Shown: in pieces, positions 1 to 28,373 of the stretch
Layout: each line of letters begins with the position of its first letter
Numbering within the stretch: the stretch's first letter is position 1
IMG/VR virus record: IMGVR_UViG_3300020175_001039
Location: 1-64,000 of that record
Length of the DNA stretch: 64,000 bases
DNA from: a virus
Strand: one strand, 5' to 3'
Notes under the pieces: generated by a model
What the model was told of the DNA's origin: nothing
Database searches by the model: none
What the model saw: the letters and a program-made list of their open reading frames with translations, nothing else
Position numbers and translations under genes: made by a program

Positions 1-266
1 TTTTGCACGATGCCCGTGTCATCTTTAAATTTCTTATTGTATTGTTGGCGCAGGCTTTCCTGTCCCATGTCTTCACTCTGTTTGCATTCTTTGCAATTGG
101 GTAACCATTCTTTTTCTTGTAGTTTGTCCCACTTGGCATGTCTATCTTGCCAGTTGCCATTAAACGGAATATTAGGTACACCGTTAGTATCAAATGCACA
201 ACACGGTCGTACCGCTCCAGTAGGTCCTATTGTTACTCCAGCTTTAAAGATCGAACATCTGGGCAT
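1..266 (-). CDS. Radical SAM protein with N-terminal twitch/SPASM domain (5' part only; runs off window)
   Basis: Read manually: MPRCSIFKAGVTIGPTGAVRPCCAF...WLPNCKECKQSEDMGQESLRQ, the same C...PCC...CxxC...S-x-R N-terminus as other rSAMs here. Not in the ORF track. Confidence 0.8.
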   Translation of the reverse strand, partial: MPRCSIFKAGVTIGPTGAVRPCCAFDTNGVPNIPFNGNWQDRHAKWDKLQEKEWLPNCKECKQSEDMGQESLRQQYNKKFKDDTGIVQ

Positions 267-996
267 AGCCAACGTTTACCTTTCTCTTGAAGTAATCACT
301 TGGATCACCGTCAAGTATCATATGGATACGTGGCTCGTCACTACGATTCCACACAGCATGTTTATAACCTGTATTGATCTTAAACATACTTCCCGGAGTA
401 AATGGCATTGTACCCCAATCTTCCATTACCAAAGCACAGCCATCTGGATTATTGATAGCTACGTTGGTTGCTCCAACCCCACGTATGTTGTCAGTATCTC
501 TATGAGGACCTAACCACCCGCCCGGCAGCACTGCCATAAAACGTACTCTACTAAACGGAGAGTAACGTACTTCGTCCATTAACCATTGTTTAGTTTTTGG
601 AGCAAACTTGGCAATATCAGTCCAATCACTTAGTTCATACTCTGCTTCATCAGGTAGCCCATAGTCCTCTGGAACGTTTGTGTGTACTGAACTCATTCCG
701 TGAATGCACAAACTCATCCATCCGCTACTGTTGGGACGATGCATTGTATAGCAACTGGTGTATAATAGGTGGTTAGCTTCCTCAAAGATATCATTATGTG
801 GCACATCAATCGGCACTGGGATCCAGGGCAAATGGGTATCATCCATAATGACGTCTAAGTCTTCTTCATTAGGGGTTAATAGGCGTAGATCATCCACACC
901 AATTAAACTTTTGTTCTTGTTTTCATTTTCCTCAAAAAAGTGTCTTGTTTCATCACTAACACTTAATTGTTCCATATGTCTGCCTTCATACCACAT
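244..996 (-). CDS. Aspartyl/asparaginyl beta-hydroxylase-like Fe(II)/2OG oxygenase
   Basis: RVRFMAVLPGGWLGPHRD (HxD) ... NTGYKHAVWN...PRIHMI (distal His, 2OG-binding Arg). Confidence 0.8.
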   Translation of the reverse strand: MWYEGRHMEQLSVSDETRHFFEENENKNKSLIGVDDLRLLTPNEEDLDVIMDDTHLPWIPVPIDVPHNDIFEEANHLLYTSCYTMHRPNSSGWMSLCIHGMSSVHTNVPEDYGLPDEAEYELSDWTDIAKFAPKTKQWLMDEVRYSPFSRVRFMAVLPGGWLGPHRDTDNIRGVGATNVAINNPDGCALVMEDWGTMPFTPGSMFKINTGYKHAVWNRSDEPRIHMILDGDPSDYFKRKVNVGYAQMFDL

Positions 997-2444
997 TATA
1001 AAATACCCGGCAACAGTTTCATATCTTGGTACTCATAATATACACCATTTGGAGTATCACCACTAAAGAATACATCTCTATTAGTAGCAATTAAACCGTC
1101 AATTAAACTTACAAAATTAAGCTGGGCTTTGAATCCTCGAGTGTTTAAATAATTAATTTCATATTGCCAAATGTTACTTAATTGAATATGCACAACTTCC
1201 TTGTCTTCAATGCTATCGATAACTGTCTGATAATTTTTAACAATGTCCAATACTTTAAAAAAATGTTTGATTGCACGTATTTTGTCCCACAGTTCCAGCC
1301 ATTCGTCTTCACTCCATTGCTCAAAGAAATCATCTACATTGCCTTGCTGATACCACATGTTGTCATCTTGCCCAAATCCCATGTCGTACAAAATACTTTT
1401 GTTATCCTCAAAGAACTTTGTAAAATTACGTCCATCCCAATTTTCAAGTAAATGTCGAGTCCAAGTAACGCCGTATTCGCTAAAGTCAGTCCATTGTACT
1501 TCTTGAATAGTATCTAAGGCTCCAATAATATGTTGAAATTGGTGTAGCCCACTGCATGGCGCAACCATAAGTGTGATTCCTAGTTTGGGTGTTTGTGGAA
1601 TACTTTCAGTATTTGTGATATATACAATAGCAGTATCCAGTAATTTGTAACTATACAAATCACGCTTGTCTTCACTGACATGAGAATATTTAAAATCAGC
1701 TAGCTCTTGTGGATCATCAAAACTTTCACGGAAGTTTTCATCCAACAACCAAGCTGCTGTCATAGCTACGTCGTCCTCAGGATAACAGCAATACTTGTAT
1801 TCCCTTACACTATAAGGAAAGTTATAAACACGGCAGCCAGCATGTAATGCTGCTGGAATTAAACTATCCATAAAGTCACCTGACCAACCACCTTCAATTT
1901 TAGTGTTTGGTTCAGAATTATTTGGCTCAATGAACACTGGAGTATATTTGCTATTGATTGTTTCTTTACTGCATAACCAAGCTGGATGGTTTTTTAAATG
2001 CCACGTTTCAAATTCAGGACGTCCTATTTCTTTCCATTTTTTTAGATTAACTACAACACATTGTTGATGAAAATGAGGATAATGATTATCTTTTGCAATA
2101 ATATGTCCAGCGCACAACCAATCTCCATTTTCATTCCATTCATCAATTGCTTCCAATAATGCAGTATCAAATTCATCACAGGTTGGCCAACTTCCGTCTG
2201 CCCAAACAATAGCATACTTGAAGTTCATTTCATATGCAAGGTTAATCATATCATAACCATCCATATCACTCCAATTGTCACAATGTAAATGAGGGAAATC
2301 ACTCATATTTTTCATGTTAATTGTTTGAACTTTTTTTAATTTTCCAGCATAATAAGTATTGGCTTTGAGTTCTTCAACTGTAATTTCATTAAATGTAATA
2401 TTAATAGCATTAATATTTGGGTTTAGATTCATATATCCGTTCAT
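996..2444 (-). CDS. Unknown two-domain protein (GT8-like N-terminus, Rossmann-like C-terminus); paralog of 2444-3988
   Basis: 482 aa ORF, TAATG-coupled; CVVVNLKKW resembles GT8 motif; shares blocks with neighbour. Confidence 0.5.
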   Translation of the reverse strand: MNGYMNLNPNINAINITFNEITVEELKANTYYAGKLKKVQTINMKNMSDFPHLHCDNWSDMDGYDMINLAYEMNFKYAIVWADGSWPTCDEFDTALLEAIDEWNENGDWLCAGHIIAKDNHYPHFHQQCVVVNLKKWKEIGRPEFETWHLKNHPAWLCSKETINSKYTPVFIEPNNSEPNTKIEGGWSGDFMDSLIPAALHAGCRVYNFPYSVREYKYCCYPEDDVAMTAAWLLDENFRESFDDPQELADFKYSHVSEDKRDLYSYKLLDTAIVYITNTESIPQTPKLGITLMVAPCSGLHQFQHIIGALDTIQEVQWTDFSEYGVTWTRHLLENWDGRNFTKFFEDNKSILYDMGFGQDDNMWYQQGNVDDFFEQWSEDEWLELWDKIRAIKHFFKVLDIVKNYQTVIDSIEDKEVVHIQLSNIWQYEINYLNTRGFKAQLNFVSLIDGLIATNRDVFFSGDTPNGVYYEYQDMKLLPGIL

Positions 2445-3988
2445 TATTCAAATCCTATATTTTTATTGTCGCCCACTGTTAAAATAGCACTGGCAGGACA
2501 CATAATATCATTATCATTAATATCAGTTCCACTAAACCAACTATCAGCGTGAGTAGTTTTTAATTTTGTAATTAGGCTGATGAAACTACTTTCTAATTGA
2601 AAGGGCTGCGCCAGTAATTTAGGAAGTATGTAACTGTAGATATTACTACTCCACATAAATGTTCTTTTATTATCTAATTTTTTAAACAATTCATCATGTC
2701 CGTTAATCAAATCACATTGCACAACACTTAGATCACAGAAGCTGATTTGTGTCCAAAAATCTCTCCAGCTTTCCGTACCGCCAAATTGATCAACAACAGT
2801 GGGCCACCGTTCTCTCACAAATCCCAAGTCTTGTCCGTATGCGTCTGGATTGCGTTCCATCCATGCCTCTACCCAACCTGGATAATCTGTACCGTCCCAT
2901 TGTTTGAGAGTTTCTCTTTTAAAATTAACACTGTCTGTGTCAAAATCAAAAAATACAAAGTTAGTGAATCCAGGATTCACTCCGTATTTATATGCGTAGT
3001 AAAGTAGCTTGAATCCTGCGCTGGCGCCAGTATAACAATCGAAGTCTGTATTTTCCAGTAGTTCACTGGTTTGGGGTTGACTGGGTTCAGTATTAACAAA
3101 GTACACTGGGCTGGTTGGTGATAGAGCTCTACCAACTAGATTACGGGCTTGGTAACTTACTTGTGTTTTATCAAACTCACCACCCGTGATGCCACTCTCA
3201 AAAGTTTCAGTACCAATGTGTGGCCTAGTGTAGGTTAGTTCGTCCATAAATTTATCACTTAGTCCCCACACATATAAACGTCTGCGGAGAGACCACGCAA
3301 TCCAAGCATTGCCAAACTCGTTCTGCTTTTCAAAGTTGAACTCTTGTGGTGTTACTTCTTTTAGTTCGCCATTGTGATCGTGATCAGATACTTTCCACCA
3401 GTCTTGGTTGCGTTTCTTTTCTCGTTTAATTTCTTCTCGGCGGCGATATTTGTCAATGTTTGTAATACCATATACACTATCTTCCCAATCCTCGTGCATA
3501 GGTTTAACACGATGCCACATTGGGTTACTGCTGGGAATAACATACGGGTTGGGCTGATCAACCTCCATCCACTTGGCAATGTTAATAACAAGAACACTTG
3601 GATTAAACCATGGATAGTAGATAGTATCAATGTTCAGTTGTCCAGCAATGAGCCAATCTCCCTCACTCTCATCGTTAAAACGATCAATCTCTGTTAATAG
3701 AACATCATTATATTCTTCACTGCTAGCCCAGCATCCATCATGCCAAACCACTGCATAGCGGTATCCCATCTTTTGAGCTGCAATAAGCCAGCTGGTGTCA
3801 CTCGGGTTGTACAAATTAACAACGCCGCCTCGCAAATGGTTAATACTTTCCACTTGCTGTAAGATTTGCAGTTTTTGTTTTAATATTGGATTTTTATTTA
3901 ATTGTTGACTGCCGGGAACAAATACGTTCACTACCGGCCACGAATGTTCAGTGTGACTATATGTCCACCCACTTTGCCCGTTATCCAT
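2444..3988 (-). CDS. Unknown two-domain protein (GT8-like N-terminus, Rossmann-like C-terminus); paralog of 996-2444
   Basis: 514 aa; WFNPSVLVINIAKW resembles GT8 FNSGVLLINLxKW; TGASAGFK...FVFFDFD resembles SAM-binding motifs I/II. Confidence 0.5.
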   Translation of the reverse strand: MDNGQSGWTYSHTEHSWPVVNVFVPGSQQLNKNPILKQKLQILQQVESINHLRGGVVNLYNPSDTSWLIAAQKMGYRYAVVWHDGCWASSEEYNDVLLTEIDRFNDESEGDWLIAGQLNIDTIYYPWFNPSVLVINIAKWMEVDQPNPYVIPSSNPMWHRVKPMHEDWEDSVYGITNIDKYRRREEIKREKKRNQDWWKVSDHDHNGELKEVTPQEFNFEKQNEFGNAWIAWSLRRRLYVWGLSDKFMDELTYTRPHIGTETFESGITGGEFDKTQVSYQARNLVGRALSPTSPVYFVNTEPSQPQTSELLENTDFDCYTGASAGFKLLYYAYKYGVNPGFTNFVFFDFDTDSVNFKRETLKQWDGTDYPGWVEAWMERNPDAYGQDLGFVRERWPTVVDQFGGTESWRDFWTQISFCDLSVVQCDLINGHDELFKKLDNKRTFMWSSNIYSYILPKLLAQPFQLESSFISLITKLKTTHADSWFSGTDINDNDIMCPASAILTVGDNKNIGFE

Positions 3989-5210
3989 TTTCTAATCTTT
4001 CGTTTACTTCGTCCATATTTTCCAATGGCATCTTTAAGTATCTTTTAACCATGCCTTTTAACTTGATATCTTGTACATAACGTGCTTCAATGTCACGAGT
4101 ATACTTGCGCATCTTTGCATAGTCTCTGATAGTTTTCTCTGTGTTTTCCAAGTATGTTGCAAAGCGATCCATTTCAGGATGCCTACTTTCAGCATCACGT
4201 AGTTTTTTAATAATTGCTGTTCTGTATTCTCCATGCCAGAGCGCCGGCGATAGATATTTAGGTGTCTGTAGTATATTAGCAGTTATAAATTTAATGTCAA
4301 TCGGAGATTTCCTCCAGAAGTCATAAAACTCTGGCATCTGGAATACATTGTGTGATTGCACTGTAATACCCACTGCTAGATCAATATCAGGCTCGGCATT
4401 TAATACCAGCATATTATTGTATACTGTATCCCAATCCCCATCCTGCCTGATGTAATTGTATACGTCTTCAATACCATCCATACTTACTTTGATATTAACA
4501 TGTTTAAACTGGCGCCAAATTTCCACAAGATCATATTTTTTAAATTTAATGTAGCTGATGTTTGTAGCATACCTAAGTTTAATATTCTTTTTAACATGCT
4601 CTGGAATACCAGCCAATAAGTCATAATGCTCTTGGTTAATAATCGGCTCCCCGCCAGTAAACTGTAGTGTGTGTACATTTTCCCACAAGTCAGGCCATTC
4701 ATTTAAACTAGCAAACAAATCTGTTGGGCGTAGCAAACGTGTCTCATATCCGTCCGATGTGTACTTACTGATGATATCCAAGTCACTTACACGTTTATAG
4801 CTACTGTGAGTACTACACATAATACACTTTAGATTACAGAAGTTACTGACTTTTAACTCCACCCACAATGGCGGATTATTGACACTGTAGTCATCGTTTA
4901 CACTTATGACGTCGCTAAATGTATCCCAGTTGTCTTTTTCCCATTGTTGACGATTGCTTACAATGCCACTGTCCTCGTTGTGCCAACACACTTCACAGCG
5001 TTTTGGTCTTTCTCCGTTGGCCAAAGCTCGTCTTAGTTCTCTATAGTGTTCATTGTTCCAGCTTTCAAGTGCAGACTCGCCAGGATTATTAAGTGGCAAC
5101 TCTTGCGCTTCGCAACACGGAACCATGTCTCCTCCTGCACTACCATAAATGTGCATAAATGGCAACATGCAGAAAGTATCGCTGTTTTTTAGTTTATCTT
5201 TTTCAATCAT
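3981..5210 (-). CDS. Radical SAM protein, N-terminal twitch domain
   Basis: FCMLPF..PCC..CEVC N-term; CNLKCIMC; FTGGEP; start set at ATGA overlap 5210. Confidence 0.9.
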   Translation of the reverse strand: MIEKDKLKNSDTFCMLPFMHIYGSAGGDMVPCCEAQELPLNNPGESALESWNNEHYRELRRALANGERPKRCEVCWHNEDSGIVSNRQQWEKDNWDTFSDVISVNDDYSVNNPPLWVELKVSNFCNLKCIMCSTHSSYKRVSDLDIISKYTSDGYETRLLRPTDLFASLNEWPDLWENVHTLQFTGGEPIINQEHYDLLAGIPEHVKKNIKLRYATNISYIKFKKYDLVEIWRQFKHVNIKVSMDGIEDVYNYIRQDGDWDTVYNNMLVLNAEPDIDLAVGITVQSHNVFQMPEFYDFWRKSPIDIKFITANILQTPKYLSPALWHGEYRTAIIKKLRDAESRHPEMDRFATYLENTEKTIRDYAKMRKYTRDIEARYVQDIKLKGMVKRYLKMPLENMDEVNERLENG

Positions 5211-6424
5211 AGTTGATTGTCTGCTTTCCAAATAATATTTTCATTCTTGGTCCAATCAACTCCTGGAGACTTAAACTCCAATAAATCTTTGAACTTGCGT
5301 ACCTGTCCCATATCAAGCCCACGTAACTTTAATACACGTTTAATTTTGTCCAAATGTTCTATGGCTACATCCTCAACATCATTATGTTCAGTTAGTTTGA
5401 GTAGCAGGTCCTTTGCTGGACGTATTTTTCCTGGTTTAATTGTATCATTAAATTGTGCATTAATAGTGTATCGTAAATTATCTTTAAACCAATCTGGATA
5501 ATGAAGTATACTCATGTAATTGGGTTCATACACTGTTTGCAATATAACATCAATATTTTTAGTTACCTTTGCCCAATACATAAACTCATACATATAAGGT
5601 GCATTAATGGCACCCACTGTTGTTGCAGTAGCAATACTTACTTTATCTGGATATTGTGTTCGCATATCAATCCACTGATCCAATACTTCTTCTACTTTAT
5701 CCCACTTGCTGGGGAAGCGCAGTACATCATTAACAACGCCAATGCTGTCAATGCTTGGACGAATGCGCAATGCTTTGTATTGCAATAGTGCATCGTAGTC
5801 TGCCTTTTTTGGCCACCATGTGCAATTTGTAAATATCTCTATTTCAATATTTGGCGCAACGCCAGCTTCAGCAAGCCTAGTGACAAAACTTAAAAACTGT
5901 CGATGTAGGAATGGCTCACCACCTGTTACTTTAATATGACGCAAACCTTTCAACAAATCAACATTGATGCTATCCAGGTCAAGCTCTTGTACTTCCTTGA
6001 GCTTTTTAATGTATTCTGGAGTTTCCAGTTTCATAGCAAGTGTGTCATCATCCCATGTATGACTAAATTCTGGACCACAGCTCATGCATTTTAAGTTACA
6101 CAATCTCCCCACTGTAATTTCCAAATACTGTAGTTCAACATCGTTAGTAAAGTCATTAAAGAACTCATCTGCTTCGGTTCGCATACTCGAACCTTTGGTT
6201 TCTTCATCAGCTTTGCATTTATAGCAACCAGGATGCCATTCATTGCGCATCATAGTGTCACGTATATCAGCAAATGTTGCACCGTAGGCATCAACAGGTT
6301 CCATGTCAGTACTATCTAAAAATCTATTGTGAAATCTACAACATGGTGTCGCAGGAACACCATGCATAAGCATGGCACCTTTGAAGGGATAAGCACAGGC
6401 ATTTTCAGGTAGTTTCGTTGTCAT
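5207..6424 (-). CDS. Radical SAM protein, N-terminal twitch domain
   Basis: ACAYPF..PCC..CYKC; CNLKCMSC; VTGGEP. Confidence 0.9.
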   Translation of the reverse strand: MTTKLPENACAYPFKGAMLMHGVPATPCCRFHNRFLDSTDMEPVDAYGATFADIRDTMMRNEWHPGCYKCKADEETKGSSMRTEADEFFNDFTNDVELQYLEITVGRLCNLKCMSCGPEFSHTWDDDTLAMKLETPEYIKKLKEVQELDLDSINVDLLKGLRHIKVTGGEPFLHRQFLSFVTRLAEAGVAPNIEIEIFTNCTWWPKKADYDALLQYKALRIRPSIDSIGVVNDVLRFPSKWDKVEEVLDQWIDMRTQYPDKVSIATATTVGAINAPYMYEFMYWAKVTKNIDVILQTVYEPNYMSILHYPDWFKDNLRYTINAQFNDTIKPGKIRPAKDLLLKLTEHNDVEDVAIEHLDKIKRVLKLRGLDMGQVRKFKDLLEFKSPGVDWTKNENIIWKADNQL

Positions 6425-7233
6425 ATTTTGAATAAATCCGTTTCAGGTGGTGGTGTCCATGTGTCTAGGTCCACTATTTCCATATCCAAATGTTGAATCA
6501 ATGATTGAATGAGATTTTTGTTCAAAAAGTTATCGTCCAAGGTACTTTTTACAAAATATATATTTGTCAACAATTGTTTATAAGTTTGCAGATTTAATAA
6601 TTGTTGCAACGGATGATGATGTATACATATTACACCGTCTGACATATAAACAATTGGACTTCCATTAATGGGGTTTACTTCATGATCATTTCCGCCGACG
6701 GTTGTTCGTGTGGCCAGTGACTTTTTGTATGTAATAAGCTGCTGTGATCCTATTGAATAAAAATGCGGCACATCTAACACTGATTTATGATCTGCGGCGA
6801 TTAGAAAAATGTTATTGTGCGGACTAGCGGTGTCATATGTAAAAACTTTGTAAGCTGCATTTAATATTGCCAGATGATCCACTGACCCATCCTCATACTC
6901 ATAATTAAATTCTTTTCTAATAGTTATATCTAATCCCATGCTTTGAGTTAGGCTTCCAATGAGTTTTATTTGTTTAGTAGCCCAATTTTTAGTAACAAAT
7001 CTATAAAAATTTAGATCAGCATGGTGTTGTTTTAATCCGCCAATATTTTCAAATCTTTTTCTCAGTTGATTTACTACATCATCGCTAACTGGACTACCAT
7101 CTGTAATATAGGCATGATAGATTATATTATAACAATTTCCTGTCCAGGTTTCGGATCTTAATTCTTCAGCTGGAGGTATAGATACATTTAGTAGATTTTC
7201 ACTTCTGCCATAATATATTACGATATTATTCAT
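6421..7233 (-). CDS. Hypothetical protein (AT-rich)
   Basis: Long ORF coupled to both neighbours; no motif recognised; ATG at 7233 preferred to upstream TTG. Confidence 0.6.
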   Translation of the reverse strand: MNNIVIYYGRSENLLNVSIPPAEELRSETWTGNCYNIIYHAYITDGSPVSDDVVNQLRKRFENIGGLKQHHADLNFYRFVTKNWATKQIKLIGSLTQSMGLDITIRKEFNYEYEDGSVDHLAILNAAYKVFTYDTASPHNNIFLIAADHKSVLDVPHFYSIGSQQLITYKKSLATRTTVGGNDHEVNPINGSPIVYMSDGVICIHHHPLQQLLNLQTYKQLLTNIYFVKSTLDDNFLNKNLIQSLIQHLDMEIVDLDTWTPPPETDLFKI

Positions 7234-13516: not shown

Positions 13517-13528
13517 AAATATATTTAT
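13515..13528. promoter_or_regulatory. Perfect 14-bp palindrome ATAAATATATTTAT; candidate bidirectional late-type promoter
   Basis: Lies between divergent starts at 13516 (-) and 13551 (+); carries ATAAATA on each strand. Confidence 0.45.
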
Positions 13529-13550
13529 CTACACAGTTAATGGAGTAAAG

Positions 13551-17756: not shown

Positions 17757-17758
17757 AA

Positions 17759-19743: not shown

Positions 19744-19791
19744 TTTTGTGGTTTCCTTTTGAGCAAGTTCGTCTGCTCCATTATATACTGC

Positions 19792-19799
19792 TATTTATA
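19792..19799 (-). promoter_or_regulatory. T4-type late promoter motif TATAAATA upstream of rSAM operon
   Basis: Exact TATAAATA on minus strand about 50 nt upstream of ATG 19743. Confidence 0.45.
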
Positions 19800-20499: not shown

Positions 20500-20517
20500 A
20501 ATAAGTTTCTTTTCAAT

Positions 20518-21222
20518 TTATTTCTTTCGCCACCACCAAATATACCAGCCCTTCATAACAACGGGTACTTTGGCTATCTCTTGATTATAGCGGCAGGCGA
20601 TTTCTTTTTCAATCGTGGATAATACATCAATGTGATTTTTAAACTTTTCTCTGAATTTAATCAAGTCGTTATATGAAATATTACTCAACAATACCTGTCT
20701 CAATTCAATTGGTTTGATTATATTAAAATTAAATTCCTGTGTCCAAGTTGAAATGTCTGAAATACTCCAAGAGTACAAATCAGGACGACGTGGAGTATCT
20801 TGATTAAGCTGATACAATTCCTCGACATCGCTACGTACTCGCATTACTGCAATCCCCCCTGGTTTCAGCCACTTGTGTACTAGTGCTATCTTGTCATGTA
20901 TACATTGTACTGAGTTTGACATATCTTCAATATTGTGGACACTTCCAAGACAAAAAACAAAGTCTGCTGAACTGGGCGATACTTGTGAGTCAAAGTCATC
21001 AAATGACCCAATAAAGTCGCCACCTGGAAACCTATCAAATCCAATAACATTGTCAATAGAATCTTTCCATATATTCATACCACACCCAGCATCAATAACC
21101 AATGACGGACTATATGAATTTATCTGTTCTGCAAATGTATCCATCTGATCGGTAGAGTGGTATGCATTGTGCATTTCATTATGGTAAAAACCCGTGGTGA
21201 TATGTTCCGGTAGTTTAGGCAC
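20518..21222 (-). CDS. Class I SAM-dependent methyltransferase
   Basis: VIDAGCG, ADFVFCLGS, WLKPGG; GTG start with GGAG RBS. Confidence 0.75.
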   Translation of the reverse strand: MPKLPEHITTGFYHNEMHNAYHSTDQMDTFAEQINSYSPSLVIDAGCGMNIWKDSIDNVIGFDRFPGGDFIGSFDDFDSQVSPSSADFVFCLGSVHNIEDMSNSVQCIHDKIALVHKWLKPGGIAVMRVRSDVEELYQLNQDTPRRPDLYSWSISDISTWTQEFNFNIIKPIELRQVLLSNISYNDLIKFREKFKNHIDVLSTIEKEIACRYNQEIAKVPVVMKGWYIWWWRKK

Positions 21223-21880
21223 TTGGAATCTCCGCGATGGCCATGTATAAATCATCTGGCCACTTTTGGAATTCTGCTGCAACCAACGGATTAAATCCTG
21301 GAATTTTACGAAGTGTAATATTCGGGTTCCAATGCTCGAACTGCATATTTTTCCTCATAGCAAAGTCTAGCATCTTGGAATTTTCTTCATATAGTCTTGG
21401 GCGCATCGTATTGTAGTCTTTATAACCCGGAGTGTAATCTGGGAAATGATCTTCACCAAAGTCCATTACATTTGCCCACCAACTAAAGCTAGCTTGTGGC
21501 TCACGGTACAATAGCATCATGTAATCACCCGGAAAATGATTCCAAATATAGTCTAGGTTAAACTGTCTTGCAAAGAAGTGACTTTTAACAATTTTATAAC
21601 CTTCACCAGTAAACACTTCGTCAATGTCATCTAGTAGTTTTTGTTTTTCAATATGATTAAAGTCTGTCCAATCTTCGCCGCAACCCATTCCTGGCCCCCA
21701 ATATGCACCGCGGTGCCCATTGTTTGTATCGCCTGGCGTGTTTACACGATGATAGAAAATTCTGTCTGGAGTTTCGTCAGTGGTGTCTGCTGGAAGTGCT
21801 TTGCGTAGTTGAATATCTACGCCACTCCATTTACTGCCTGGTATTCCACAAAACCATATACGTTTATTATAATCTGTCAT
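21215..21880 (-). CDS. Sulfotransferase-fold-like protein (atypical)
   Basis: WFCGIPGSKWS (5'-PSB-like loop), KSH, YREPQAS (3'-PB-like); paralog of 23341-24015. Confidence 0.45.
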   Translation of the reverse strand: MTDYNKRIWFCGIPGSKWSGVDIQLRKALPADTTDETPDRIFYHRVNTPGDTNNGHRGAYWGPGMGCGEDWTDFNHIEKQKLLDDIDEVFTGEGYKIVKSHFFARQFNLDYIWNHFPGDYMMLLYREPQASFSWWANVMDFGEDHFPDYTPGYKDYNTMRPRLYEENSKMLDFAMRKNMQFEHWNPNITLRKIPGFNPLVAAEFQKWPDDLYMAIAEIPSA

Positions 21881-21893
21881 AACCCAATCCATT

Positions 21894-21925
21894 AAAAAAG
21901 GGAGAGTAAGTTTCCCTACTCTCCC
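21894..21925 (-). terminator. Rho-independent terminator after ferritin-like gene
   Basis: GGGAGAGTAGG-GAAA-CTTACTCTCCC followed by T6 on minus strand. Confidence 0.85.
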
Positions 21926-21939
21926 CAATATTATAACAC

Positions 21940-22788
21940 TTATTGTGCGAAGTTGTCAACTGCTGATTCTTCTTGTTCGAACTGACCACGTGGAGTTGGT
22001 ACCCAATCCACTAGCTCACCTTTTGGCTCGAACCATGTTTTGCCCATTTCAGCCATTTTGTCTTCACCAAGATCATGACCATATGCGCCTTCTACAAGAG
22101 CTGCTGCTTCACGTGTAGCTTCTGTACCCATGCAGTTAATCCAGTACATGCGCTCTGTCATTTGTGGAATTACTGCTAGTACTGCTGCCTGTGCTTCTTC
22201 TGTCACTGCTAGACGCTCTAGTGTACGTGCGCCGATGTGTGAGTGGAATGTCTCATCCTTAGCAATTTTAGCGTATGTGCGTGATACGATTGGATCTGCA
22301 ATTGATGTTGCCATTGCATTCCATACGCGACCTGCGCGACCTTCAGCTACGAACTGGTATACTGCTGCCATTAGCTCTGATTCATGACCACCAATTTCTT
22401 CAAATAGTGATGCACCTTTTGCTTTGATGTTCTTTTCGTCCATCTGCCATGCAAATTCTGCTTCTAGTTCTTGGTCTGAAAATGCTTCACCTGAAAGATA
22501 TTCAATTACATTCTTAACCATGTCGTAATGCTTCGCTTCGTCAAGTACTTGCTTTGCTAGTAGCTTTAGCTGAGTTGGATCAGCTGATGCTGGCATATCT
22601 GCAAGTGTTTTTGAGATTTCTACGATGTTCATACGTTCGTTAAACATACGGCGTTTGAAGTGAAAGATCGCTTCATCTAGATCCGGTTGGTTACGGAAAT
22701 ACGCTTGTGTTTGGATTTCTGAAGCACGGAATAGTGGTTCAATAGTGGCTGCAACGTGTGCAACAAATTCTTTACCTGTCATTGTCAT
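21940..22788 (-). CDS. Ferritin-like diiron carboxylate protein
   Basis: E...DEAKH...E...DETFH paired ExxH motifs; AAGGAG RBS. Confidence 0.75.
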   Translation of the reverse strand: MTMTGKEFVAHVAATIEPLFRASEIQTQAYFRNQPDLDEAIFHFKRRMFNERMNIVEISKTLADMPASADPTQLKLLAKQVLDEAKHYDMVKNVIEYLSGEAFSDQELEAEFAWQMDEKNIKAKGASLFEEIGGHESELMAAVYQFVAEGRAGRVWNAMATSIADPIVSRTYAKIAKDETFHSHIGARTLERLAVTEEAQAAVLAVIPQMTERMYWINCMGTEATREAAALVEGAYGHDLGEDKMAEMGKTWFEPKGELVDWVPTPRGQFEQEESAVDNFAQ

Positions 22789-23357
22789 TTTTTTGACTCC
22801 TTTAAAGTTTTTAAGATATCTTGAAATTCGTCTGGTACCCAATGATTATCGAGATCTCGTTCTGGATGCCAGACAACAGCCATGACGTTTTCTAACTGCC
22901 ACGACTCAATAAACCCGTTGTCGTCGGTCACAAGGACCTTTGCATCGGTGGGAGCCATAGTAATTGCGCTACCGTGGTAACTATTTACTATGCGCTGTTC
23001 GTATTTATACCAAACAGTGTGTTCGGTACGCCTATGTCCCTCAACGGATTCACATTTTCCATCCATTAATTGTGTTAGCAGAAATGCGCCATGACAGATT
23101 CCCAATATCGGCTTTCCTTGCAGTCTAAACTGCTTAATCATTTCTATTTCTGTAACCAATCGCTGTGGATGATCGTCACCTCCGCTAAGAACCAGTAGAT
23201 CATGTTCTACTGCTAATTTTTGGAAGTTTTGATTCTTTTTATTAATTAGCGCAGTGGTCTCATGTTCTCGAAACATGCTATAGAAGCCACGCTCAAAAGC
23301 GTCAAATCTAAAGCCGCCTGGACTATCTAATGTTCTTGTGCTAATTAATACTTTCAT
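22785..23357 (-). CDS. Class I glutamine amidotransferase (peptidase C26-like)
   Basis: LSGG, LGICHG nucleophile elbow, NSYH, WHPE triad. Confidence 0.85.
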   Translation of the reverse strand: MKVLISTRTLDSPGGFRFDAFERGFYSMFREHETTALINKKNQNFQKLAVEHDLLVLSGGDDHPQRLVTEIEMIKQFRLQGKPILGICHGAFLLTQLMDGKCESVEGHRRTEHTVWYKYEQRIVNSYHGSAITMAPTDAKVLVTDDNGFIESWQLENVMAVVWHPERDLDNHWVPDEFQDILKTLKESKK

Positions 23358-24015
23358 TATTACTACCTTTGTATAACACAGGCCACAGGGTGTTGTCAAG
23401 TGGATTAATGTCTATGTTACTATTTATTTCATACATTACTTCTGGCATGTGTGTCTCAAGCCACTTTTCTGGTTGACTGAGATTAAAATCTATACGGAGC
23501 CCTTGTTCGCGGATAAACTTGGTCATAAGTTTTGTTTCAACATCAATCTGGCGACGCAACACAGTGTCACTACCGTACCAAGTATAATTGGGATAGCTGA
23601 TATCCCATCCACCGCTTTCATGCCACCATCTGTAGCTCATTTCAGGTTCCCGTAACACCATTAGGATATCAACCCATGGCATATTCTCTGCAATCCAATC
23701 CAACTGATAACTGAACCAGTGACAACGTATAATTCTAACTGGACGGTCATCATCATCGTCATACGCAGTATCAATTTCTGCCATAACTCGTTCTGGACCC
23801 AGTAGGTCCAATCTGTCAAAGCCTTCGCCGTGCTGGTGATATGGTCCCCAGAATGTATATATGTGCTGTGTTCCGTGGCTGGGCAAATCCTGGTGGTAAG
23901 GAAGTTTACAACTAGTGTCCACTATGTCGCATGTTTTATACAACATGTTTTCAATTCTTCCCCATCTGCTTCCAGGTACACCTGTTAAGAATATATATTG
24001 TTTATTTTTCATCAA
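23341..24015 (-). CDS. Sulfotransferase-fold-like protein (atypical), paralog of 21215-21880
   Basis: FLTGVPGSRWG, RCH, LREPEMS. Confidence 0.45.
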   Translation of the reverse strand: MMKNKQYIFLTGVPGSRWGRIENMLYKTCDIVDTSCKLPYHQDLPSHGTQHIYTFWGPYHQHGEGFDRLDLLGPERVMAEIDTAYDDDDDRPVRIIRCHWFSYQLDWIAENMPWVDILMVLREPEMSYRWWHESGGWDISYPNYTWYGSDTVLRRQIDVETKLMTKFIREQGLRIDFNLSQPEKWLETHMPEVMYEINSNIDINPLDNTLWPVLYKGSNNESIN

Positions 24016-24790
24016 TTGCTTCTATAAGTTTCTGTGCTATTACTTGGTGTGTTTTAAAACCTGGATGTACATCATCTCTAGATAAATCAATCATCATATC
24101 ACGGGTAATAGTTACTTTGTTTTCTATATCGTTTTCAAATTTAAAGTTCTTTCTAGGAGCAATTAGAAATATTACCTTTGCCCGCGGAAACAAGTGATTT
24201 ACATAGCCTTCAAATATTTTTAAGATGTCATTATTAGTCTTGTTAAATGTTTCATTAAAAAATTGGGGTTCTTGGTTTCCTATATTTAGATTTCCACGCT
24301 TTAAATTAGTTTTAATATAAGCCATAAGCCAGTTGTTTTCTGCAACAAACCGAGTATCACCAATAATTACAATATCAGGATCATAATTTACACCAACATC
24401 ACGCAACGGATCCACTAGCGCGGTTAAACTATCATAATCACTAATATTTAAGTAATCAGCACCATAATGCTGTACAATAAGTTCTGGTATAATGCCTTCC
24501 AACGGCAATCCACACCCTACTAGTAAACTACCACCAGCAAATAGTATCTTGTGTTTAGCTGAATAGTCTGGTTCCGGTCCTCGATATCCTAGACTGTTCC
24601 ACGTGTATTCTATAGTGTGTTGATTCCAATCAGTGTCTGGCTTTAAATGCAAGCTCATGCTTTCAGGTATTGTGCTTTTTTCCTTTTGGTCCTTGCCATA
24701 GTATAGCACAGTTTCTCCAGGAATACGATCTTCTTTTACAATGGCCGGAAAATTTTTTGTTTTAAAATCCTGATAATCTTGTGAATTCAT
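24002..24790 (-). CDS. SGNH/GDSL hydrolase-like protein (possible acyl esterase/transferase)
   Basis: NSLGYRG, AGGS..G, DDVHPG (DxxH). Confidence 0.6.
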   Translation of the reverse strand: MNSQDYQDFKTKNFPAIVKEDRIPGETVLYYGKDQKEKSTIPESMSLHLKPDTDWNQHTIEYTWNSLGYRGPEPDYSAKHKILFAGGSLLVGCGLPLEGIIPELIVQHYGADYLNISDYDSLTALVDPLRDVGVNYDPDIVIIGDTRFVAENNWLMAYIKTNLKRGNLNIGNQEPQFFNETFNKTNNDILKIFEGYVNHLFPRAKVIFLIAPRKNFKFENDIENKVTITRDMMIDLSRDDVHPGFKTHQVIAQKLIEAIDEK

Positions 24791-25734
24791 AATTTGATTA
24801 CTCTATCGGGATCGGGATTATCAATCATCCACTGGCATTTCTCACTAACAAACCCAGTGATTTGAAATGTTACTCTTGGAGTATATCCAAAGTTTGCAGT
24901 ACCGTGAGGCATATTGCACCAATCGTAAGTAGTAACAGTTCCTGCTTTATATCCCTGATGATAGGTATTACCGAATTGCCACACGTGTCCCATTTCCCAA
25001 TCTTGTAGGTGTATAAGGAACCTACGTAACATAAGAGGGTTCTTGTCTGCTCCAGCATCTTGCCATACCTTTTGCCAACCAGGACGAGCATATCGCATCT
25101 GTTGATCAATGTGAATAGGCGTAACCTGGCCTAGTCGTTGGATATGCAATCTACTCTGGTGAACATCTACGCCTAATTCTTCAATAATTTTAAAAAATAT
25201 TTCATACTCTGGTATACGATTTTCAATTACTTCTTTTTTGCCAGTCTCTTTGTTGAATTTTGTCCTTGCAATTTTATCATAATACATACTACTAAGATCG
25301 TCTTTGCCAGTGGCACGTTTGACATCCAGTATTTCACCATCATGCAAGTCAGCATCTTGTTTACTGTCATTTCTACTTCGGTAGTTGCCAATTGTCATTT
25401 CTTTAGCTTGCTTTAATGCATACGCAATAGCCTCAGAATAATCTCCCTCAAACCTACAAGGTACTACAAATGACTGCTCATTGGGATCTTCAAATGGATC
25501 AAAGTGCCAAGTACTTCTAGTTTTATTATGATCCCAACGACTTGGATTGTTGTCTACCTTAAAGATGTTATCCATCTTGTCATGTCGTTCCATTTGTTCA
25601 GCACTATACATTTCATCTTCATAATTGCTGTCAATGTGCGTTTCGCCAACAATGACTTCTTTCTCAACCATTGCATCAGCCAAGTCTTTAACCTTGTCTC
25701 CGGAATAGTAATTTACGCCTTTATTTTTTTTCAT
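24787..25734 (-). CDS. Fe(II)/2OG oxygenase-like protein
   Basis: PIHID ... WCNMPHGTAN..PR; paralog of 19795-20499; start uncertain. Confidence 0.65.
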   Translation of the reverse strand: MKKNKGVNYYSGDKVKDLADAMVEKEVIVGETHIDSNYEDEMYSAEQMERHDKMDNIFKVDNNPSRWDHNKTRSTWHFDPFEDPNEQSFVVPCRFEGDYSEAIAYALKQAKEMTIGNYRSRNDSKQDADLHDGEILDVKRATGKDDLSSMYYDKIARTKFNKETGKKEVIENRIPEYEIFFKIIEELGVDVHQSRLHIQRLGQVTPIHIDQQMRYARPGWQKVWQDAGADKNPLMLRRFLIHLQDWEMGHVWQFGNTYHQGYKAGTVTTYDWCNMPHGTANFGYTPRVTFQITGFVSEKCQWMIDNPDPDRVIKL

Positions 25735-26923
25735 AATGTTTGAACTCTTCATAATATAATGCCAAGGTTGCCCATATGGCATCTGGATACAAATTAGTAT
25801 ATTTGTTTCCAGTCTTTGAGTAATGATCCCACACCGTTTGGCTCATGTCTAAATCAGCATACTCTCTCCAGAACGATGTATCAGTACGTGAACTTAATCC
25901 ATAATGATGCAGTATGTAATCACTATTTTCACGCCAGGTTCTTCTCATCATGCGGTTGTATAATTTTGAGTTATTACCTCGTTTGATACACTCTGCTAAT
26001 GCCGTTATGCCATGTTGTATCATAAACAATGCATTTGATTCAAGAGGATCAATAAATCCCTGACTCAATCCAATTGCCACTACATTACCACTCCAAGGGT
26101 TTTGCAACCAATTGGGTTTCCAGGTAATATTACGTGGCTCTTTATTCATATATGGATTTAGATGTGCAGTATACTTTTTAAAATCATCGAGTGCTTGTTC
26201 ATGACTAACATGATCACTACTATAAACATAACCTGTTCCAACACGACTTGTCAGCCCAATTTTAAATTGCCAACCATGATCACGTGCAATGCTGCGAGTA
26301 TAAGGAACATCTTCGTCTAATTCAAAAGGACAAACCCAAGCACTGTTTACTAAATGATAATTTGATATCTCGTCTTGTGTTTTATCTACAACAAACTGTT
26401 GACGAAATCCAGTACAGTCTATGTACAAATCATACCCTGAAGGAAGCTCGTCTAACGTTTGTATAATATGTGTGACACGTTTACAGTTGTCTTTAACAAT
26501 ACGTCCAGCGGCTTCAGCATGCAAATGATATGCAACAGCACTCCAGCCTTCTTTGTGGTACAGTGCATCATTAATATTGTTCTTGTCTACCTCGCCAGAT
26601 TTATATTTCTGATACCAATTATCAAATGCATCGTTGTCATTATGCCAAAACGTAAAGGCGAACTCATCGTCATCTTTATCAGTCCAGCCTTGCTTTATAT
26701 TTCCATATTTGTATACTGCATCACATTTTGACATCCAGGAATCTTCATCCATACCAAAGCTGTCAAAAAAAGTCTTGATCATTGGCAAGGTGCTTTCGCC
26801 TACTCCAATGATAGGTATATCAGAGCTTTCTATTAGTGTAATGTCACAATCTGGCAAATTATGCTCTAGATATCCAGCTGCCCACCATCCCGTCGTGCCA
26901 CCTCCGATAATGCATATTTTCAT
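25721..26923 (-). CDS. Flavin-dependent (tryptophan) halogenase family protein
   Basis: GGGTTGW, IGVGEST, AVYKYG (catalytic Lys position), IDCTG, GWQFKIGL, FIDPLES. Confidence 0.8.
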   Translation of the reverse strand: MKICIIGGGTTGWWAAGYLEHNLPDCDITLIESSDIPIIGVGESTLPMIKTFFDSFGMDEDSWMSKCDAVYKYGNIKQGWTDKDDDEFAFTFWHNDNDAFDNWYQKYKSGEVDKNNINDALYHKEGWSAVAYHLHAEAAGRIVKDNCKRVTHIIQTLDELPSGYDLYIDCTGFRQQFVVDKTQDEISNYHLVNSAWVCPFELDEDVPYTRSIARDHGWQFKIGLTSRVGTGYVYSSDHVSHEQALDDFKKYTAHLNPYMNKEPRNITWKPNWLQNPWSGNVVAIGLSQGFIDPLESNALFMIQHGITALAECIKRGNNSKLYNRMMRRTWRENSDYILHHYGLSSRTDTSFWREYADLDMSQTVWDHYSKTGNKYTNLYPDAIWATLALYYEEFKHYEKK

Positions 26924-26924
26924 A

Positions 26925-27509
26925 TCAATGTTCCTTGCAGTTGGGCAACATATTTTGTACTGTTTTGATATTTTCTTCTGTTATGAAAACGCTCATTAAT
27001 ATATGATAAATTCCATCTACCATAGCAAAACTGCCATGTTGCTTGCGAGTATTTAGTATATAGGCTTTTGCAGGTTTAAAATGATGTAACTCAGTATTAT
27101 AGACAAAATTCCATTGGTGTACATCTGTTTTATTGAGTGGAATAAAAATTCTCATTTGGGGGCGCATTTTGTGAGCATCGCGGTGCATACCAAAAAAGCT
27201 ACCAGCTTGTAACTCAACTGCCCGACATCTTGCTAACTTTTCCCACTTAGAGAAAAAAGGAACCAATCCAGTGCATGAATTTAAATTTTGATTGGGTACT
27301 TGATATGCGTCATGCTTTTTTTCATGTTCCAAGTCAAGTCCACTTGGTGGCCCAGTTAGATTAAGTCCTGACTTTCCGTTAGGTCCTTGTTCCCATTTTA
27401 GATTTTTTAAATCTGATATGATACCATTTGCATCAAACTCCCAATCAAGTTCAATAATGTCCCCATAACTATTCAGTAGGGTCAGTAGTTGTATCTCTGT
27501 ATCGTTCAT
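26925..27509 (-). CDS. Aspartyl/asparaginyl beta-hydroxylase-like Fe(II)/2OG oxygenase
   Basis: GMHRD ... LNTRKQHGS. Confidence 0.7.
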   Translation of the reverse strand: MNDTEIQLLTLLNSYGDIIELDWEFDANGIISDLKNLKWEQGPNGKSGLNLTGPPSGLDLEHEKKHDAYQVPNQNLNSCTGLVPFFSKWEKLARCRAVELQAGSFFGMHRDAHKMRPQMRIFIPLNKTDVHQWNFVYNTELHHFKPAKAYILNTRKQHGSFAMVDGIYHILMSVFITEENIKTVQNMLPNCKEH

Positions 27510-27756
27510 TTTTTGAATTTTTCCTAAGTGTGTCCATCTCTTTGATATGCTGAATACGCATAATTTGATGATACATCTTAATCACACCTTTTGGTGCGTC
27601 TGCCTTCCATATCCATGGCAACAGTCCATGTATTAGGCTCATTAAGGCGATCTTTATTAATGCCCAACTATTTTTGATGCTGTGCCAGAGATGATACCAG
27701 TATCCCCAACCAGTTTCTACTTGTAAATGATGCCTGGCTTCACGAAACCATTTCAT
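27469..27756 (-). CDS. Small membrane-associated protein (DUF6356-like)
   Basis: HL...GYWYHL...IHGLLPW pattern; ATGA-coupled. Confidence 0.5.
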   Translation of the reverse strand: MKWFREARHHLQVETGWGYWYHLWHSIKNSWALIKIALMSLIHGLLPWIWKADAPKGVIKMYHQIMRIQHIKEMDTLRKNSKNERYRDTTTDPTE

Positions 27757-28373
27757 TTGTGTTTCCAATACCAGACTGCTAAATTAATTTTTCTATCATG
27801 ATCAGGTGATCCATGATTGCCGTTGATTCTCTTGGCGCCACCTGCTGCTGTTTCCACTACAGGTTCACGATATAATTCTACTTTGTCTGAAAAAATCTCA
27901 GTCGCAGTGTATATATCTTCAACTTTCCAACCATATTGCACAAAGCCCTTCTTGAGATTAAGTTCAGTATGGTCATTCAGTCTTGCTCGGCATACAATAT
28001 ACCCGCCGGGCTTGCACCAGTCAATGCATATTTCCAGTTGATTAAGAACATTATCCCAATCGCCAAAGTTGATACTGCCTAATGCCATAACAATGTCTGC
28101 ACAGTTGTCTTGAAATATTCCAGCATCTTTAACTTCTTCAGCTGCCATGTTTAGATCTGCTTCTGGATAGTTTGCAGCATCCATGCCAATAAGATTATTA
28201 ACATGTTCCTTGTAGGGATTGGTGCCACATCCTATATCCAGAATCAGATCTGCTTCTTGTTCCTGAAGCCATGGTATAAGAGAGTAACTGCTTTCACTGT
28301 GAGTTTTCCATCTATCTCTAGAATAGTTAGCACTGTTAAAGTGATTTCTGACTTGCTTGATTGTCTCAGTCAT
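27753..28373 (-). CDS. Class I SAM-dependent methyltransferase (paralog of 20518-21222)
   Basis: ILDIGCG, ADIVMALGS, WCKPGG. Confidence 0.8.
   Translation of the reverse strand: MTETIKQVRNHFNSANYSRDRWKTHSESSYSLIPWLQEQEADLILDIGCGTNPYKEHVNNLIGMDAANYPEADLNMAAEEVKDAGIFQDNCADIVMALGSINFGDWDNVLNQLEICIDWCKPGGYIVCRARLNDHTELNLKKGFVQYGWKVEDIYTATEIFSDKVELYREPVVETAAGGAKRINGNHGSPDHDRKINLAVWYWKHK

Follow-up and report, generated by a model that had tools for sequence, protein, structure and literature searches.

The window examined here, a 64,000-nucleotide stretch comprising bases 1-64000 of the linear 94,555-bp IMG/VR virus record IMGVR_UViG_3300020175_001039 (window position 1 being the end of the contig), carries at 244-28421 an island of 31-32 open reading frames (ORFs), among them those for radical S-adenosylmethionine (SAM) enzymes, oxygenases and amidinotransferases. 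The model that we favour, tentatively and with somewhat less than even confidence, proposes that this island encodes an accessory pathway, wholly cytoplasmic, in which a sugar or ulosonic-acid precursor is tailored and ends on a glycoconjugate, the precursor most likely being an activated sugar or a ulosonic acid resembling 3-deoxy-D-manno-octulosonic acid (Kdo). This model is preferred because the closest solved relative of the oxygenase encoded at 13551-14381, KdoO, is a sugar-acid hydroxylase; because the two amidinotransferases match enzymes acting on small amines or inosamine phosphate; because clusters with the same core in Bdellovibrionota adjoin GT2/PMT_2 or UDPGP-like genes; because sugar-supply genes lie in the window and a carbamoyltransferase gene on the contig; because the N-terminal cysteine domain of one family of island radical SAM enzymes aligns with the twitch domain of BtrN; and because a SAM synthetase (MetK) and a nucleosidase are conserved together with the island, the core order of which is kept in about 25 viral contigs. 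To judge from sequence relationships, the phage lineage likely acquired the pathway from glycan-modifying clusters of Bdellovibrionota. The window holds a well-equipped example of a kind of island that recurs and is uncharacterised.

The island and its phage

The source would be an uncultured marine giant T4-like phage, although the assignment to a T4-like jumbo phage rests on relatives, as no capsid gene was found in the 94.5 kb of the window's own contig. One such relative, G001, has direct terminal repeats at a length of 342,607 bp, is rated 100% complete and carries a T4-type Gp23 capsid gene. The contig itself is rated 26% complete by CheckV, and the whole genome would therefore be near 350 kb, of which the contig represents about 26%. 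Phage-like backbone genes in the window encode a phrog_1314 HNH endonuclease, a phrog_1297 ATPase, an exonuclease, QueE, GTP cyclohydrolase (FolE), thymidine kinase and MetK; the same ATPase (55% identity) is found in G001 about 20 kb from that phage's own radical SAM block. When island and flank were compared by megablast with 50,697 phage records, no match and thus no close isolate was found.

A preliminary description of this DNA had portrayed the island as a dense, nearly gap-free array that runs off the left edge of the contig, and both observations stand: all but two ORFs lie on the minus strand, and neighbours almost all overlap, by 1-59 nt, the sole gaps being of 51, 18, 2 and 1 nt. 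Longer relatives keep the order of the genes starting at 5207, 3981, 2444, 996 and 244 and continue with five to seven more genes of the N-terminal-twitch radical SAM type (N_Twi), so that the island in this phage probably passes the contig edge by 8-10 kb. At the other end, position 28,373 is no functional boundary, and more members of the same family (NF033640) are encoded at 33576-34889, 62706-63806 and, farther along the contig, 83790-85433. As had been proposed, no nonribosomal peptide synthetase or polyketide synthase, transporter or precursor peptide was recognised in the island, nor was a recognition element (RRE) of RiPPs (peptides made by ribosomes and modified after translation). 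An Rfam scan over 1-30000 matched no family, and Pfam at E-values up to 10 returned nothing usable for ten orphan island proteins. As the island proteins all look soluble, with no polytopic membrane protein among them, the chemistry would be cytoplasmic. The sole polytopic membrane protein seen on the contig lies beyond the window at contig 70255-71799 (L142:6255-7799) and is a TctA-family tripartite tricarboxylate transporter subunit (Pfam 5.5e-89).

Enzymes of the conserved core

Five island proteins (213-425 bits) exceed the curated cut-off of 170 bits for the NCBIfam family NF033640 (N_Twi_rSAM, twitch domain-containing radical SAM protein). In these enzymes an N-terminal cysteine set, C...CC...CxxC, precedes the radical SAM motif CX3CX2C, and in their alignment C12, C93, C96, C150, C154 and C157 are invariant and C30 and C31 nearly so. 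The remaining radical SAM enzymes carry a C-terminal SPASM/twitch cysteine motif: two are paralogs of each other (2.8e-69), and the third is divided between a core ORF and a separate SPASM/twitch ORF, which overlap. An identical two-ORF layout recurs in two related loci (L014 and L016), which makes a sequencing error improbable, and the split is probably genuine. The nine twitch-type radical SAM proteins counted previously thus hold as nine ORFs but amount to eight enzymes, five of the N_Twi and three of the SPASM/twitch type. Searches of the Protein Data Bank (PDB) with profiles of both families gave generic matches only (SkfB, NifB, Tes, BlsE, viperin and BtrN), naming no substrate, and literature searches on NF033640, on radical SAM enzymes of Bdellovibrio and Bacteriovorax, and on KdoO together with phages found no functional study. 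An enzyme that the earlier inventory had overlooked, the nucleosidase encoded at 17759-18316, is kept between two radical SAM genes in roughly 18-23 loci; all 25 of its PDB matches, the best at 2.5e-7, are nucleosidases for methylthioadenosine and S-adenosylhomocysteine (MTA/SAH) or for aminodeoxyfutalosine. MetK likely supplies SAM to the radical SAM enzymes and methyltransferases, and together nucleosidase and MetK fit a heavy turnover of SAM.

The most informative result concerns the oxygenase of 13551-14381. Its model (predicted local distance difference test, pLDDT, 88.9) matches KdoO in Foldseek at 5e-12, the next family following at 6.5e-6, and can be superposed on KdoO along its whole length (VIA-align Z 20.6, root-mean-square deviation 3.2 Å over 241 residues), whereas no other Fe(II)/2-oxoglutarate (Fe/2OG) oxygenase exceeds Z 11.8. 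A first, shallow profile of this family (13500) had found nothing meaningful in the PDB. In a deeper profile KdoO is the sole PDB match, with the HxD motif and the distal histidine in register (lHlDe on LHVDA and isHqi on vlHAV; HMMER), and H141, D143 and H242 are invariant in alignment A9, which includes two Bdellovibrionota homologs. By its predicted fold, therefore, the closest solved relative of this core enzyme works on an eight-carbon acidic sugar. Six Fe/2OG oxygenases had been claimed for the island. Two of these are verified, that of 13551-14381 by fold and that of 244-996 by Pfam, and two more, at 19795 and 24787, share an invariant HxD...H...R set, whereas the candidates at 14371 and 26925 (the latter cupin-like) were assigned from motifs only. 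Homologs of the 244-996 protein (33-37% identity) occur in a Bdellovibrionota cluster, G006, and its gene is syntenic with those at 996 and 2444 in relatives. Profile searches of Pfam and the PDB gave nothing usable for the 19795/24787 family.

The two amidinotransferases were recognised correctly from the outset. Their joint profile, A7, matches HsvA (1e-35), SxtG (4.7e-34), AGAT (1.4e-32) and StrB1 (5.8e-31) in the PDB, each in two stretches; H218, D220, H338 and C339 are invariant, and a GGxHC motif aligns with G-S-F-H-C of HsvA. The assignment of a pyridoxal 5'-phosphate (PLP) enzyme at 7226-8134 is likewise upheld: its matches to fold-type I aminotransferases are weak, but D161, S186 and K189 (Ser-x-x-Lys) and R197 are invariant and PF00155 is recognised in some homologs. 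This enzyme is part of the core common to bacteria and is 42% identical to its counterpart in cluster G006.

At the left end of the window, two tandem genes encode paralogs (3e-24) of 482 and 514 aa, for which 119 homolog clusters exist, none of them named. They had been described as GT8-like fusions. A fusion is borne out by an AlphaFold model of the 996-2444 protein (pLDDT 91.7), in which residues 9-267 would adopt a glycosyltransferase fold of the GT-A type (Z 10-11 to majastridin-UDP, hyaluronan synthase, LARGE1, LgtC and GlyE) and residues 265-482 a class-I methyltransferase fold (Z 10-12 to NNMT and 6ulo); neither fusion has any Pfam match, GT8 included.

Relatives, promoters and flanking genes

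The best-conserved island gene, the N_Twi gene at 18313-19743 (hereafter the hub gene), has relatives in 55 IMG/VR viral contigs, of which about 25 keep the core gene order. By gene start, this order reads 28676, 28366, 21215, 19795, 18313, 17759, 16494, (15277), then 14371/13500 on the opposite strand, followed by 11441, (12830/12502), 10422, 8121, 7226, 5207 and 3981. A search for synteny, which the preliminary description had proposed as a check, therefore found co-occurrence to be conserved. In a cultured phage of 344 kb, the Ralstonia phage RsoM2USA (L224, MG752970.1 114897-140033), an N_Twi-type radical SAM protein 32% identical to that of contig 83790-85433 is encoded two genes away from that for a carbamoyltransferase with 47% identity to the one of contig 74491-76017, all of these being annotated as hypothetical; this phage could possibly serve as a laboratory model. 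Partial relatives are likewise found in the cultured Vibrio phages K566/K567 and, in the form of a KdoO-like protein, in Caulobacter phage CcrPW.

A scan of prokaryotes at one genome per species found 75 loci. Hub-gene orthologs of 55-66% identity (62% for one of Bacteriovoracaceae) occur in many Bdellovibrionota, chromosome-level assemblies included, where they are surrounded by several radical SAM paralogs of N_Twi and SPASM type and by homologs of the genes at 7226, 11441, 13500, 244 and 996. In these clusters the core homologs (of 8121, 11441, 7226, 3981, 12830, 13500, 244 and 996) are 25-45% identical to the island proteins, and NF033640 genes number roughly 9-24 per genome in four Bdellovibrionota, compared with 13 in the complete phage G001. 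In one genome the gene beside a cluster of about 30 kb encodes a UDPGP-like nucleotidyltransferase, genes for acyl-CoA carboxylase lie beyond it, and on the opposite flank rpoD and dnaG stand 5-7 kb away; in another the cluster abuts GT2 and PMT_2 (GT-C) glycosyltransferase genes. A 551-aa UDPGP-like neighbour was suspected to be common to two bacterial clusters, but the two proteins proved unrelated. At locus L116 a membrane protein adjoins the cluster. The island may thus be called phage-encoded as regards its context here, but its gene set is not specific to phages, since homologous clusters stand on Bdellovibrionota chromosomes near rpoD and dnaG.

In a quick maximum-likelihood tree of the hub gene, rooted on island paralogs, a main viral clade of 44 rows (35 of the 37 viral sequences together with nine contigs of metagenome-assembled genomes, MAGs) nests within Bdellovibrionota as sister to Bacteriovoracaceae and Halobacteriovoraceae, with a Shimodaira-Hasegawa-like approximate likelihood-ratio support (SH-aLRT) of 99. 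The other two viral sequences (L049 and L056) do not join this clade but split off at the tree's base. Given the long outgroup branches and short search, transfer of the hub gene from bacteria to phage is likely, short of proof. The nine MAG contigs (L059-L062, L092, L096 and L098-L100) are assigned to Bacteroidota, Planctomycetota, Pseudomonadota, Verrucomicrobiota, Actinomycetota and Chloroflexota, and are probably phage contigs mis-binned into bacterial MAGs.

Expression of the island was predicted to be late, from TATAAATA/ATAAATA motifs at 19792 and 13515. The ATAAATA element does occur at the heads of transcription units, at 19798 and 13515/13528, and is conserved there in the close clade; of the 23 copies on the contig, 9-12 precede a gene start by no more than 80 nt, and yet intergenic DNA makes up only 4.6% of the contig. 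TATAAATA, on the other hand, is not enriched (4 matches against 6.4 expected). About 45-55 nt ahead of the hub gene stands a box that is also present in roughly half of the close relatives, and the palindrome at 13515-13528, possibly a two-way promoter, is conserved in 6-9 of 14, two having TTGACA-N17-TATAxT instead. The late-type boxes (19799-19792, 13515/13528 and 23427) are overlapped by sigma70-like sites, and more distant relatives have a perfect TTGACA-N17-TATAAT at the same places. Contrary to the statement that sigma70 promoters are concentrated outside the island, the best such sites in the first 40 kb stand at unit heads within it, at 19808, 13600 and 21959. Late expression is plausible for this clade; the promoter class, by sequence, is not fixed across the group, being of sigma70 type in some relatives. 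The hub leader further contains a minus-strand hairpin (19778-19761), for which no Rfam family was found, with an invariant 8-nt loop, GACGAACT, and a 5-bp stem that varies by compensatory changes (GAGCA/TGCTC here, GTGCA/TGCAC in L016, GTTCA/TGAAC in L017; such changes are also seen in L019). The GACGAACT loop occurs at the hub leader in six related loci and once more in L004. On the same strand at 21959-21893, the match to a sigma70-type site is perfect (TTGACA, 18 nt, TG-TATAAT), and immediately after it come a GC-rich hairpin of 12 bp and a run of T; this site separates a variable insert from the conserved core.

The block at 21940-28421 is considered a variable insert because, among the 55 loci, it was found in only three contigs (L004, L016 and L017). 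Its flavin halogenase was correctly named (259 bits against a Trp_halogenase cut-off of 21, with GGGTTG, a GxGxxG motif, at residues 7-12), but it lacks WxWxIP, reading WQFKIG, and a full-length C-terminal module, being 400 aa long compared with 497-550 aa in solved tryptophan halogenases; a scan of viral contigs in IMG/VR found no close halogenase relative. The glutamine amidotransferase (GATase) is equally secure, and two methyltransferases, one in the insert and one in the core, are supported by weak Pfam matches and by being mutual paralogs. By comparison, the two proteins called sulfotransferase-like remain a lead from the Atlas, and the SGNH-like and diiron-like proteins were assigned from motifs only. 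The 21215/23341 family has no Pfam match and gave nothing meaningful in a PDB profile search, although GxxGSxW and RE motifs are invariant in the 21215-21892 protein; the ORF called at 21215-21928 probably begins at 21892.

The preliminary description also held that there was no scaffold gene, which is doubtful, as the same window encodes KdsA and KdsB (for the supply of CMP-Kdo), MetK, part of a UDP-sugar dehydrogenase and a nucleotidyltransferase-cupin protein, and the contig a carbamoyltransferase at 74491-76017. A three-gene module at 45224-47010 (a 113-aa protein, KdsB-like and KdsA-like proteins) is conserved across 76 contigs of viral origin; elsewhere it mostly forms an unbroken stretch with homologs of the carbamoyltransferase gene and of 72714/73124, 67588 and 58035, which are here scattered over 30 kb. 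Also among the sugar and nucleotide genes are those for an M17 leucyl aminopeptidase (43450-44820; Pfam 2.7e-119) and a subtilase of 884 aa that is hydrophobic at its N-terminus (49158-51812). Features with their coordinates are collected in Table 1.

Table 1. Position, strand and basis of assignment of features in the window.
Feature	Position	Strand	Basis
Asp/Asn-beta-hydroxylase-type Fe/2OG oxygenase (cupin)	244-996	-	Pfam PF05118 3.5e-11
Tandem paralogs, predicted N-terminal GT-A-fold and C-terminal class-I methyltransferase-like domains	996-2444, 2444-3988	-	AlphaFold model, fold search
N-terminal-twitch radical SAM	3981-5231	-	NF033640 314 bits; CX3CX2C and N-terminal Cys set
N-terminal-twitch radical SAM	5207-6424	-	NF033640 213 bits; CX3CX2C and N-terminal Cys set
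Protein of 284 aa	6421-7275	-	no Pfam match; no tblastn match in 55 related loci
Short PLP-dependent enzyme, fold-type I aminotransferase-like	7226-8134	-	weak Pfam Aminotran_1_2; profile matches to PDB aminotransferases
N-terminal-twitch radical SAM	8121-9371	-	NF033640 256 bits
Two paralogous radical SAMs with C-terminal SPASM/twitch Cys motif	9364-10422, 10422-11441	-	Pfam Radical_SAM, SPASM
Amidinotransferase 1	11441-12505	-	profile A7 against PDB; 45% identical to G006 cluster gene
Split radical SAM	core 12830-13516, SPASM/twitch ORF 12502-12843	-	Pfam
Palindrome ATAAATA-TATTTAT between divergent genes	13515-13528	.	candidate two-way late-type promoter
KdoO-like Fe/2OG dioxygenase	13551-14381	+	fold match to KdoO; start 13551, not 13500
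Candidate Fe/2OG oxygenase	14371-15282	+	HxD...H...R motif only; no Pfam match; homologs in 9 related loci
Amidinotransferase 2	15277-16497	-	Pfam ADI 4e-6; in profile A7; paralog of 11441-12505 at 3e-31
N-terminal-twitch radical SAM	16494-17756	-	NF033640 301 bits
MTA/SAH (5'-deoxyadenosine) nucleosidase	17759-18316	-	Pfam PNP_UDP_1 5.6e-16
Hub N-terminal-twitch radical SAM	18313-19743	-	NF033640 425 bits
Hub promoter and leader	19744-19808	-	TTTACA-N17-TATAAT 19808-19780; TATAAATA 19799-19792; hairpin 19778-19761
Candidate Fe/2OG oxygenase, paralog of 24787-25782	19795-20499	-	H129, D131, H196, R206 invariant in alignment A1
Class-I SAM methyltransferase	20518-21282	-	Pfam Methyltransf_23 9e-6; paralog of 27753-28421
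Sulfotransferase-like, lead only	21215-21892	-	Atlas nearest named clusters Sulfotransfer_1/3/4, score 0.93-0.94
Variable insert, nine genes	21940-28421	-	Pfam, motifs
Diiron-like protein	21940-22842	-	motifs only
Class-I GATase	22785-23399	-	Pfam 5e-14
Second sulfotransferase-like protein	23341-24015	-	lead only
SGNH-like protein	24002-24790	-	motifs only
Fe/2OG-like, paralog of 19795-20499	24787-25782	-	invariant HxD...H...R in alignment
Flavin halogenase	25721-26923	-	Pfam Trp_halogenase 1e-76; RebH 2e-47
Cupin-like	26925-27509	-	motifs
99-aa protein	27469-27768	-	ORF
Methyltransferase	27753-28421	-	weak Pfam match; paralog of 20518-21282
N-terminal-twitch-type radical SAM beyond the island	33576-34889	-	Pfam Radical_SAM; paralog of 3981-5231 at 3e-32
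SAM synthetase (MetK)	38466-39560	-	tblastn 43-49% identity to annotated metK; phrog_1569 5e-109
KdsB-type cytidylyltransferase	45552-46244	-	Pfam CTP_transf_3 8e-20
KdsA-type synthase	46207-47010	-	Pfam DAHP_synth_1 7e-52

Proposed pathway, alternatives and known systems

The enzyme classes described above allow a pathway to be proposed, of which we infer both the substrate and the sequence of reactions. The twitch radical SAMs would take hydrogen from sugar carbons and so oxidise, epimerise or deoxygenate hydroxyl positions; BtrN, AprD4 and NeoN perform such steps in aminoglycoside pathways. The short PLP enzyme could then make an amine from the resulting keto group, and the two amidinotransferases would convert amines to guanidino groups with arginine as donor. 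Hydroxylation by the KdoO-like enzyme and other Fe/2OG oxygenases may follow, and more groups could be added by the methyltransferases and sulfotransferase-like proteins and, in this phage, by the rare halogenase/GATase/diiron insert, before the two fusions of GT-A and methyltransferase folds transfer or cap the product. Throughout, SAM would come from MetK, inhibitory 5'-deoxyadenosine and SAH would be cleared by the nucleosidase, and KdsA and KdsB could increase the supply of CMP-Kdo. The end point is the least certain step, probably a glycoconjugate, either a protein of the virion, assembled in the cytoplasm, or the lipopolysaccharide (LPS) of the host, reached via host transferases. The preliminary description had the island decorate a macromolecule encoded elsewhere, which appears overstated: amidinotransferases, PLP enzymes and twitch radical SAMs belong to enzyme types whose substrates are activated sugars or small molecules, so that most steps would precede any transfer to a macromolecule.

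Enzymes of these types might also be expected if the island made, in the infected cell, a free small molecule of aminoglycoside, aminocyclitol or guanidino type, possibly halogenated in this phage and either released at lysis or active inside the cell, an alternative that we regard as rather unlikely. The twitch radical SAMs, PLP aminotransferase and two amidinotransferases of StrB1/HsvA/SxtG type do echo the logic of streptidine and saxitoxin; secondary metabolites are typically tailored by enzymes such as halogenases, carbamoyltransferases and sulfotransferases; and the island enzymes are all soluble. However, no exporter, resistance gene or scaffold synthase (of the cyclase or 2-deoxy-scyllo-inosose synthase type) was recognised in the island, the bacterial clusters adjoin GT2/GT-C envelope glycosylation genes, and the predicted GT-A fusions suggest transfer to an acceptor. 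Such an acceptor could also be DNA, with the island building or decorating a modified base or a base-attached sugar. T-even phages glucosylate hydroxymethylcytosine and other phages insert 7-deazaguanines, and the T4-like lineage, the presence of QueE and FolE in the window, and cytoplasmic enzymes with GT-fold proteins suited to post-replicative decoration would agree with this. Nevertheless, hypermodification of DNA seems improbable: Pfam and NCBIfam recognised in the island no DNA-binding, base-exchange, nucleotide kinase, dNMP-modifying or DNA glycosyltransferase domain (several island proteins having no annotation at all in these scans), the deazaguanine genes are 13-34 kb distant, and the same core stands in bacterial chromosomes beside envelope glycosyltransferases.

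Modification of a peptide or protein, in which the radical SAM/SPASM enzymes would act on a RiPP or on side chains of a virion protein and the oxygenases and amidinotransferase-fold enzymes on its residues, is given a similarly low chance. It would account for the weak matches of the SPASM/twitch radical SAMs to many RiPP maturases and for oxygenases of AspH-type and JmjC-like kinds, which often target proteins. Yet none of 30 island proteins scanned has a PqqD/RRE match in Pfam, there is neither a gap above 51 nt for a precursor ORF nor a conserved small ORF, the amidinotransferases match the small-molecule branch rather than peptidyl-arginine deiminases, and the oxygenase tested by fold resembles KdoO and not FIH (Z 20.6 against at most 11.8).

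Tailoring of a sugar thus remains the reading that we favour, although several observations weigh against it. The substrate class ascribed to NF033640 rests on neighbours and folds; we know of no member with measured activity, and SPASM/twitch radical SAMs mature peptides too. The KdoO-like gene was located in only one of four Bdellovibrionota genomes searched, the GT-A halves have a family consensus WxDG (W81 and G84 invariant) and no clear DxD, and the phage also has 7-deazaguanine genes. KdsA and KdsB lie at least 17 kb from the island, their module travels in other phages with a different gene set and rarely with N_Twi genes, and they were found neither in the complete relative G001 nor in four partial relatives. 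For this last reason the idea that the Kdo genes are firmly tied to the island was rejected; the module being usually apart from N_Twi genes and missing from G001, it is plausibly a supply line for CMP-Kdo and not a fixed part of the island.

Were this reading true, a large and abundant group of ocean phages would devote at least 10% of a genome of about 350 kb to radical chemistry on sugars, the product would give a function to NF033640, a family of hundreds of members with no known reaction, and new radical SAM sugar chemistry, possibly yielding guanidino-sugars, could be expected. It would also explain why one toolkit is found in phages and in predatory bacteria, both attackers of Gram-negative cells. 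A more specific version, which we put forward as an unlikely speculation, is that the N-terminal-twitch radical SAM battery common to marine T4-like jumbo phages and predatory Bdellovibrionota builds, with the PLP enzyme, amidinotransferases and KdoO-like hydroxylase, an undescribed class of sugar, a guanidinylated ulosonic acid or amino-sugar with multiple C- and O-edits, which would decorate the virion or the envelope of the cell under attack and influence recognition or resistance in predation or infection. To the recurrent type of island, this window adds a core of amidinotransferases, PLP enzyme and KdoO-like oxygenase, the rare halogenase insert and conserved late-type promoter palindromes.

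Among known systems, a T4-like genome of marine origin, in which radical SAM genes number 12, has been reported and discussed under Fe-S metabolism (Nishimura et al., 2017; PMC5332604), without functional analysis, assignment to a family, pathway context or a link to Bdellovibrionota. NF033640 itself is a catalogued family without tested function, here represented by five diverged paralogs in the island, and at least seven on the contig, among amidinotransferases and oxygenases. With KdoO (PDB 5YKA, 6A2E), which 3-hydroxylates Kdo in Kdo2-lipid A, the 13551-14381 protein has the whole-length fold and HxD...H triad in common, but it is only 17% identical, phage-encoded and flanked by radical SAM rather than LPS-core genes. 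A series comprising a BtrN-type radical SAM or oxidase, a PLP aminotransferase and a StrB1-type amidinotransferase, as known from BtrN, StrB1 and KdnA/KdnB, underlies the logic of streptidine and other aminoglycosides and of Kdo8N, and the same three classes (radical SAM, PLP aminotransferase and amidinotransferase) are adjacent here, with two amidinotransferases as in streptidine synthesis. In contrast to those pathways, the island has no cyclitol synthase, kinase or resistance gene, the twitch is N-terminal in its radical SAMs, and the context is that of a lytic jumbo phage and of predatory bacteria. Glycosylation of chlorovirus and mimivirus capsids or fibrils and glucosylation of T4 DNA resemble the island in their cytoplasmic, virus-encoded GT-A-fold proteins and sugar-supply genes, and the modelled GT-A half is similar at fold level to PBCV-1 A64R and mimivirus R699; however, the chlorovirus, mimivirus and T4 systems have neither the radical SAM battery nor the amidinotransferases and halogenase that are found here.

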